A stretch of DNA of 64,000 nucleotides from Eledone cirrhosa (taxonomy: Eukaryota), in the NCBI GenBank assembly GCA_964016885.1, contig OZ024742.1:7688001-7752000 (forward strand). Reading direction: 5' to 3'. Below, in pieces: positions 43,220 through 44,306 of this stretch. Below the pieces are notes generated by a model. It worked only from the letters and a program-made list of their open reading frames with translations. It had not been told where the DNA came from and searched no databases. The stretch's first letter is position 1; the number at the start of each line of letters is the position of its first letter. A program made the translations under genes and the position numbers.

Positions 43220-44306
43220 ATAAGTATGTATACGTACATACATATATGTATATGTACATACATATATGTATACAGACGTACAGAAGTATGTATATATATA
43301 TATATATATATATATATATATATACATACATGCACACATATATATATATGTACGTATGGATTCACCGAACATTTATTATAATGCTCGGTGTGTTTGTAAA
43401 CAAAAATCCCGAATTAAGCCGTACAGTGTCTAGCAACCATCGTTGCTCATTTGTTCAACACTGACAAAGGAACGCTGTACTAGTTTCAAGCTTATTAGCT
43501 ATCGTCAGCAACGTATACCTTCCTGCCAGATGATTGAACGTCTGAAAGTATATACTTTCCTTATGCATATTAACGGCTGAGCAGCCTAATTTGCATATCG
43601 AGTGAGTTAATCGGCCGGGGTACCGAAAACGATAAACGGATAAAATGAAACGAAATTTCATTTCTCATTCTTAGTACGGCTGTTACTTAAATATAAGTAT
43701 GTACGGCTTCATTCGGGATGTTTGTTTACAAACACACCGAGCATTATAATAAATGTTCGGTGAATCCATACGTACATATATATATGTGTGCATGTATGTA
43801 TATATATATATATATATATATACATACTACTGTACGTCTGTATACATATATGTATGTATGTATACATACTTATATTTAAGTAACAGCCGTACTAAGAGTG
43901 AGAAATGAAATTTCGTTTCATTTTTTCCGTTTATCGTTTTCGGTACCCCGGCCGATTAACTCACACGATATGCAAATTAGGCTGCTCAGCCGTTAATATG
44001 CACAAGGAAAGTAAATACTATCAGACGTTCAACCATCTGGCAGGAAGGTATACGTTGCTGACGATAGCTAATAAGCTTGAAACTAGTACAGCGTTCCTTT
44101 GTCAGTGTTGAACAAATGAGCAACGATGGTTGCTAGACACTGTACGGCTTAATTCGGGATGTTTGTTTACAAACACACCGAGCATTATAATAAATGTTCG
44201 GTGAATCCATACGTACATATATATATATGTGTGCATGTATGTATATATATATATACATACTAGTGTACGTCTGTATACATATATGTATGTACGTATACAT
44301 ACTTAT
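43220..44306. mobile_element. Non-autonomous ~440-bp hammerhead repeat (retrozyme-like): ~1.1 units minus joined to ~1.4 units plus
   Basis: tgtacggctt.attcgggatg at 43700 and 44141. HHRs at 43472-43514 (minus) and 44052-44094 (plus): acgttg CTGACGA t agct-aata-agct t GAAA CTAG TA cagcgt. No recognisable ORF; (TA)n on both sides. Confidence 0.85.

Follow-up and report, generated by a model that had tools for sequence, protein, structure and literature searches.

In a 64,000-nt stretch of contig OZ024742.1 of Eledone cirrhosa (hereafter the window), we found a non-coding hammerhead repeat that lies in (TA)n tracts as head-to-head, 5'-truncated arms and that was quite probably copied in trans by the reverse transcriptase (RT)/GIY-YIG protein of a Penelope-like element (PLE), from an RNA in which the ribozyme site was unbroken. 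Judged from its sequence, this appears to be a retrozyme-type repeat that clearly carries the marks of a PLE: its own junctions show an inverted 5'-truncated partner, a partial tandem, (TA)n and recurrent internal 3' ends, and the window also contains true PLE debris with which it can be compared as a control. The class of element is already known, so the family is an extension rather than a surprise. The initial annotation of the window had proposed a non-autonomous, high-copy, hammerhead-bearing family mobilised by a PLE RT from an RNA of more than one unit, and this proposal is well supported by the architecture, the (TA)n targets, the arms that re-enter the unit and the class of the hammerhead ribozyme (HHR).

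Arrangement of the repeat unit at three loci

The unit of 441 nt has a GC content of 36% and begins anew at 44141, and only three loci in the 64-kb window match it (Table 1). The head-to-tail repetition that had been noted at 43700 and 44141 holds insofar as the unit restarts at the second of these positions, although the tandem amounts to only 1.38 units; the statement that there is one intact HHR per unit had to be given up, because the second forward unit is a 166-nt piece without HHR and the HHR of locus 1 is degenerate. The three loci were recovered as described, except that the 19864-21725 segment within locus 1 is an unrelated DNA transposon. This Chapaev3-like insertion has CAC...GTG termini, a TTA duplication between A and T, a transposase frame (20182-21414) and LH and H(4)H motifs. 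Its homologs, with 60-66% identity, include those of fish, a mantis shrimp, insects and a tunicate, which fits reported horizontal transfer.

Table 1. Location of the hammerhead repeat, its parts and related features in the window
Feature	Position	Strand	Remarks
Type I hammerhead	44044-44100	+	Proximal and distal helix I; C3 44058; predicted cut after 44088
Second hammerhead copy	43466-43522	-	C3 43508; H17 43478
Full 441-nt non-coding unit	43700-44140	+	36% GC; unit restarts at 44141
Locus 2, right arm	43700-44306	+	607 nt = 1.38 units; one HHR; 3' end at unit position ~174 abutting (TA)n
Locus 2, left inverted arm	43220-43703	-	484 nt, slightly more than one unit; one HHR
Locus 2, head-to-head joint	43700-43703		Arms overlap by 4 nt, TGTA
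(TA)n flank, left of locus 2	43051-43221		
(TA)n flank, right of locus 2	44307-44349		
Locus 3, main arm	59999-60333	+	335 nt; HHR with C3 at 60031; 3' end at unit position 235 abutting (TA)n
Locus 3, inverted stub	59985-60002	-	18 nt; outer end abutting (TA)n
Locus 1, inverted arm, 3' part	19672-19863	-	Ends in (TA)n at unit position 235
Locus 1, inverted arm, 5' part	21726-22075	-	Degenerate HHR, C3 at 21822; diverged subfamily
Locus 1, forward arm	22060-22337	+	Unit ~150-215, then ~31-262; 3' end abuts AGAG(TTC)n
Chapaev3-like DNA transposon inside locus 1	19864-21725	-	Later insertion, outside the family
Predicted long AU-rich hairpin	43768-43863	+	Just 5' of recurrent 3' end 43873
Predicted 12-bp hairpin	43898-43934	+	Followed by recurrent 3' end 43934
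Family B (second hammerhead family)	33674-33968, 49103-49700, 59422-59719, 61181-62013		min-HHR shape; C3 at 33776 and 49530

All three loci are head-to-head inversions in which the 3' ends of the hammerhead strand face outward, and a partial tandem is also present at two of them. Five of the six outer ends abut (TA)n, in agreement with the earlier remark that the 3' ends mostly join TA repeats, and the sixth, belonging to the locus 1 forward arm, abuts AGAG(TTC)n. The left arm of locus 2 has its 3' end at the same site as the right arm (unit position ~174) and, like it, abuts (TA)n. Each of the three arms longer than one unit (607, 484 and ~541 nt, the last being the sum of the 3' and 5' parts of the locus 1 inverted arm) re-enters the preceding copy of the unit. 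Alignment of the locus 1 5' part to locus 2 gave 241 matches, 27 mismatches and 8 gap positions, corresponding to a subfamily about 10% diverged. No arm at any of the three window loci carries two HHRs, implying that none of these loci could release a circle.

It is scarcely credible that the palindromes are artefacts of assembly or of read fold-back, even if the region is AT-rich and contains many of them. The two arms of locus 2 differ at 8 of the 343 nt compared (non-microsatellite positions) and so are not a read fold-back; one arm is split by a transposon with its target duplication; and the joint to (AT)n is found again in public contigs, though the main matching run may be the source sample.

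The hammerhead motif

The motif as first described was located in full, with its helices, core, CUAG loop and cut site at 44088. Helix I has 6 bp (44052-44057/44089-44094) and, beyond an internal loop, is followed by a further 5-bp helix; helix II starts with a U.U at 10.1-11.1 and continues with 4 bp (44066-69/44074-77), with GAAA at 44079-82; and helix III consists of one A-U pair capped by the palindromic loop CUAG, H17 being at 44088. The cores of the copies at 43508 (minus strand) and 60031 (plus strand) are identical to that of the 44058 copy, and the locus 1 HHR (C3 at 21822, minus strand) has a C.A at the base of helix II, GUU and one mismatch in helix I.

A type I descriptor matched the window four times, in the three copies of the family and in a weak, unrelated motif at 54502, and gave no matches in 200 block-wise dinucleotide shuffles; as the three copies belong to one family, they represent one independent event. 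The best Rfam match was Hammerhead_HH9 (RF02275, clan CL00010) at 44040-44111, with 19.7 bits and E=0.0092. The core and helices of our HHR align with this family, but the score is below the gathering score of 52 and the HHR is therefore not a member. When the whole window was scanned against Rfam, no hammerhead appeared among the 150 of 285 matches listed, which were mostly chance miRNA matches to AT hairpins. The HHR pattern gave no matches in viral, metagenome and prokaryote contigs.

Six public runs, none of them on record as RNA, match this stretch. In a contig subfamily found in two of the runs (record 9 of X4 and record 18 of X5), 7 letters are changed at 5 helix I pairs; two pairs are changed on both sides and all 12 helix I positions pair, the phase in this single comparison being taken from matching contig depths. 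The pair 44055/44091 was found as U.G, as G.U and, by matching frequencies, as A-U, and among the 40 of 56 variants listed the changes between C3 and the cut fell only in N7 and loop II. Covariation over the four window copies was not significant (114 of 500 shuffles scored as high), and the helices outside the HHR were given no weight.

As far as the letters tell, the HHR is of the canonical metazoan, or retrozyme, type and not of the minimal type (min-HHR) of PLEs. A 6-bp helix I, a 4-bp helix II and a 1-bp helix III with a palindromic loop make up the 'canonical metazoan' form, which is said to need a second copy for good cutting (Cervera and de la Pena 2014; PMC4209133). The U.U at 10.1-11.1 is present in active natural hammerheads (Perreault 2011; PMC3088659) and also at the helix II base of the axolotl HHR_Amex2, so that the HHR of our unit combines this feature with the 1-bp helix III of the axolotl HHR_Amex1 (PMC7229834). 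Self-cleavage by the hammerhead is predicted to occur after 44088.

Coding capacity and comparison with true Penelope-like debris

The longest ATG ORF in the unit has 68 aa, no Pfam match was obtained for the three tested ORFs lying within copies of the unit, and tblastn with five PLE proteins of the window found no match inside the three loci, confirming the earlier reading that the repeat has no RT or endonuclease remnant. Local alignment of the unit with seven PLE 3' regions of the window and with neighbouring repeats revealed no similarity, the best alignment (p~0.01 of 14 tests) being one with a non-PLE neighbour that was AT-rich and broken by gaps, and a tRNA-like head was not found with ARAGORN.

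Frames in the window show that PLEs are present in the same genome as the unit. A second hammerhead family (family B, Table 1) is likewise inserted head to head in (TA)n; the 3' end of its copies is fixed, and tails of ~30 nt are present at 59721 and 62015. Its long copies continue into a frame homologous to the C-termini of GIY-YIG proteins: 58 homologs were found, 16 were scanned, and Pfam GIY-YIG was detected at E<=0.01 in 9 of the latter, 5 of which pass the cut-off. BLASTP between this frame and the GIY-YIG frame of the window was not significant, and the link rests on the homologs. Read in this way, family B is the 3' end of an autonomous PLE. Its min-HHR has a long helix II, an extra preceding base and a short helix I; these traits, like the 4-5-bp helix I and the G10.1-C11.1 that define the min-HHR shape, are missing from the HHR of the 441-nt unit. 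Because family B runs into a GIY-YIG frame and the 441-nt unit runs into itself, true debris of the tandemly repeated 3' end of a PLE (pLTR) looks different from the unit.

The linkage of longer copies to a GIY-YIG ORF had been named beforehand as the sign that the unit is itself the pLTR of an autonomous PLE, the loci then being its 5'-truncated debris. Within the window, all three long arms re-enter the unit and none reaches such an ORF; no ORF remnant is present, the min-HHR traits shown by family B are absent, and among the six X1 loose ends listed none enters foreign sequence except (AT)n. We consider this origin unlikely, although the architecture and the target equal those of the true pLTR debris in the window, some PLE HHRs have a small palindromic helix III (PMC4209133), and a rare autonomous master could be hidden, the contigs being short. 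Retrozymes are moreover sister to pLTRs in Xenopus and appear to be derived from them (Li, Clavereau and Pollet 2026; 10.64898/2026.07.22.740005), for which reason pLTR and retrozyme, taken as alternatives, would seem to be partly a false choice.

Predicted fold of the unit RNA

A circle of one unit was predicted to fold with an MFE of -143.2 kcal/mol (z -11, partly from the AT hairpin) and 69% of its positions paired, and helix II and most helix I pairs had a probability of at least 0.86. Outside the microsatellite, the fold of the HHR strand gave z -5.7, against z -2.8 for its complement (60 shuffles each). Helix III was not formed in the MFE fold of the monomer; a self-duplex of the palindromic helix III region was predicted at -6.8 kcal/mol.

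These folds, as well as the polarity of the loci, bear on whether the repeat could have spread at the DNA level, being Helitron-associated or MITE/satellite-like, with inversions from DNA repair in fragile (TA)n and the hammerhead as a passenger. We regard this as very unlikely: the fold favours the HHR strand, helix I pairing is maintained across subfamilies, the ends have a constant polarity with respect to the HHR strand (3' ends facing outward at all three loci), the 5' ends are variable and the 3' ends recurrent, and the unit boundaries have neither terminal inverted repeats nor Helitron-like ends. DINE-1/pearl-type elements contain an internal microsatellite and hairpins, and so does the unit, with one internal microsatellite and several hairpins; many other palindromes also lie in the window, and to this extent a DNA-level origin finds some backing.

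Recurrent 3' ends and abundance in public contigs

On the unit map, the 3' ends lie at position ~174 twice (one locus), at 235 twice (two loci), at 262 once and at 342 once (the 18-nt stub). The sites correspond to 43934, which ends loci 1 and 3, and to 43873, which ends both locus 2 arms. Both are situated a few bases 3' of predicted hairpins and 220-290 nt downstream of the predicted ribozyme cut, and none of the six 3' ends falls at the cut itself. One locus 1 end lies ~27 nt past the 235/43934 site in a tail-like manner (n=1) and abuts AGAG(TTC)n rather than (TA)n.

A loose end at 43934 followed by (AT)n was present in 61 contigs of run X1, being the best-supported X1 loose end among the 17 of 229 listed, and in 4 contigs of X6; the 43823-43878 segment was masked as repeat in this comparison and the 43873 end is therefore uncounted there. 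Position 43934 is likely to be a preferred start for the RT. The initial annotation had the loci starting and stopping at different points of the same circular map. Several sites are indeed used, but the 3' ends recur, 43934 being found in two of the three loci and in the 61 contigs, and ends that recur at few internal sites are not random permutations. The step from circular permutation to a circular RNA is for this reason weaker than had been stated, and no two-HHR locus is present here.

In X1, 10,289 contigs align over 394 nt of the unit stretch. A high copy number is likely; this figure indicates it but does not measure it, and X1 is possibly the source sample itself. The summed X1 contig depth of 0.3-2.4 million is not a copy number and was not used to rank parts of the unit, and we do not conclude from the 10 and 9 contigs of X4 and X5 that the family has other host species. 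No contig spans the whole aligned stretch, and the share of X1 sequence that runs on unlike the unit rounds to 0 over the 10,289 contigs. The forward arm in the window differs from at least 99% of the X1 depth at 4 positions, a private change of ~1%, suggesting that the locus 2 insertion is fairly young. No clear A>G excess of the kind that RNA editing of the template would leave was detected among the X1 variant sites (6 of 35).

Proposed mode of insertion

We propose that a master locus with more than one unit would be transcribed on the hammerhead strand and that a PLE protein would bind this RNA and nick both strands of a (TA)n tract. The RT would then begin internally, not at the ribozyme cut but at one of a small number of preferred RNA sites lying directly 3' of hairpins (43934, 43873 and, in one case, 43961), and would copy back over the intact ribozyme site for up to ~1.4 units. 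Finally, the cDNAs made from the two nicks would be joined at their truncated ends through a short overlap. Efficient cutting by the ribozyme is predicted for the dimer only, and the single-HHR arms would be offspring unable to release unit-length RNA.

The known marks of PLE insertion are a partial tandem, an inverted 5'-truncated copy, a tail of 30-40 nt at one end and (TA)n targets, and elements of the Hydra clade combine a CxCx5C linker with hammerheads and with insertion into (TA)n (Craig 2021; 10.1101/2021.04.23.441226). The best candidate for the partner is a clade that, like Hydra, targets (TA)n; at least eight fragments of this type occur in the window, to which no sequence link of the unit was found. 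In vitro, both strands of an AT-rich target are nicked and extended by a purified Poseidon PLE protein; its RT starts at two neighbouring positions within the RNA, which determine the tail and are not homologous to the target, and hammerhead cleavage is not needed (Frangieh 2024; PMC11167929). Such behaviour would account for the outward 3' ends, the recurrent internal ends and the intact ribozyme sites of our loci. Overlaps of 1-5 nt are seen at the TA joints; given that the Poseidon RT starts are not homologous to the target, these overlaps may not be priming sites.

It is extremely improbable that the unit is a SINE-like RNA mobilised by a LINE, for instance by the one with zf-RVT at 46174-47745, and that its inversions arose by twin priming. 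In L1 twin priming the arms would not overlap almost wholly and both end inside the RNA, as ours do on the unit map; in addition, there is no poly(A) tail and there are arms of more than one unit. These points outweigh, in our opinion, the presence of LINEs in the window and their having been named as possible helpers (PMC7229834).

Returning to copying by a PLE protein, no cleavage is needed by the PLE RT (PMC11167929), so that a circle is not required and an uncut multimer would suffice. A circular template is plausible by analogy, circular RNAs being known to accumulate from coral, mussel and axolotl retrozymes (Cervera and de la Pena 2020; PMC7229834); cleavage was seen in only one of nine dimers of retrozymes that were tested (Li, Clavereau and Pollet 2026). 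As a matter of judgement only, we lean slightly towards an uncleaved multimeric transcript rather than a re-ligated circle as the template. The two passes within one arm differ at 3 of 127 nt, which equals the arm-to-arm divergence and favours neither template.

More doubtful, though possible, is that the window contains the first cephalopod retrozyme family, with a ~441-nt RNA circle made by the hammerhead and copied round more than once by a (TA)n-targeting PLE protein from both nicked strands. If this were true, the family would offer tens of thousands of dated head-to-head footprints on which the movement of retrozymes through circles and by PLE machinery could be tested, and it would supply long inverted repeats to the transcriptome. 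There are likely many thousands of copies, and the statistics of their junctions could tell whether the template was circular or a linear multimer and could indicate which RNA element is recognised by the RT.

Relation to retrozymes and to other Penelope-like elements

The unit resembles non-LTR retrozymes (PMC7229834; 10.64898/2026.07.22.740005) in having a unit within 150-450 bp, a GC content below 45-50%, no ORF and a canonical type I HHR per unit. The likeness extends to a predicted RNA that is highly self-paired with the HHR helices free to form, to the presence of PLEs in the same genome, and to the head-to-tail repetition, three arms exceeding one unit and the longest reaching 1.38. Unlike the dimers and arrays of those retrozymes, its copies are dispersed arms of 0.8-1.4 units set as head-to-head pairs in (TA)n. 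In the available text of the same two sources, supplements aside, neither inverted pairs nor recurrent internal 3' ends are described and no cephalopod is named. Two HHRs in tandem, by which Li et al. (2026) recognise an 'active' retrozyme, were found at none of the three window loci, and we therefore file them as offspring-type copies and not as active retrozymes. Shared ribozymes, co-occurrence and kinship with pLTRs have served in these papers as arguments that PLEs mobilise animal retrozymes, the mechanism of insertion being left open. We regard the repeat as a non-autonomous, PLE-mobilised hammerhead family whose membership among the retrozymes is probable but unproven.

Our literature search found no paper on a cephalopod retrozyme, although one may be included in the supplementary material of Cervera 2020 and Li 2026. 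For the giant squid genome, only a figure of 235 Rfam hammerhead hits is given (PMC6962438); PMC6155905, PMC10886601 and PMC8969392 provide general background only.

With EN+ PLEs, especially Hydra and Neptune (10.1101/2021.04.23.441226; PMC11167929), the unit shares the partial tandem, the inverted 5'-truncated copy, the (TA)n targets, 3' ends past an uncut HHR and, at a single end, a tail-like extension of ~27 nt. It is unlike them in that it has no RT or GIY-YIG frame, carries a canonical and not a minimal HHR, and shows no similarity to the PLE ends of the window. The non-autonomous PLEs of Chlamys, such as MRC1, are also comparable, being non-coding PLE passengers with pLTR-like and head-to-tail insertions, but for them an autonomous partner with common 3' sequence is generally known, and HHRs are mostly lacking in their clade (10.1101/2021.04.23.441226).

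Other elements in the window

At least eight Hydra-type fragments occur in the window, the CxCx5C linker being present in 3 frames, and the clade label comes from this motif and not from a tree. One of them, at 39119-39843, is a 3' fragment whose GIY-YIG-like frame ends at 39604. It carries at 39778 a small hammerhead in which U.U stands at the base of helix II and the loop is the palindrome CAAUUG, and the 3' end of the element lies 36 nt past the predicted cut, abutting (TA)n. The other fragments, none of them intact, are located at 3683-5218, 16952-17161, 34664-36100, 51421-52273, 53319-53582, 55905-56314 and 56664-57095. At 36680-37666 lies a PLE-type frame of another kind, in which Pfam identifies GIY-YIG, and at 46174-48152 a LINE fragment (RVT_1, zf-RVT), for which the sole named homolog among 6 matches was from the cephalopod Argonauta hians (60%). 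Protein searches with the Chapaev3-like transposase and with a Hydra-type frame returned no match bearing the name of a cephalopod.

Another non-coding head-to-head repeat (42786-43050, 24614-25029 and 25076-25413) has one copy that uses the TA tract to the left of locus 2; it contains CUGAUGA and showed no convincing hammerhead fold. At 42564 there is a hammerhead-like core with a U.U helix II base and a weak helix I, and the repeat in which it lies also adjoins the RT fragment at 34664. Imperfect palindromes with 86-98% identity, mostly beside (TA)n, are found at 2381-2696, 2751-2999, 24765-25341, 39844-40166, 49850-50388 and 54800-58139, the last of which extends over 3.3 kb and contains inverted PLE fragments. 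Finally, a minisatellite of ~105 copies of a 38-bp unit occupies 29536-33501, and tandem duplications with units of ~527 bp and 335 bp are located at 14792-15928 and 48415-49080, respectively.
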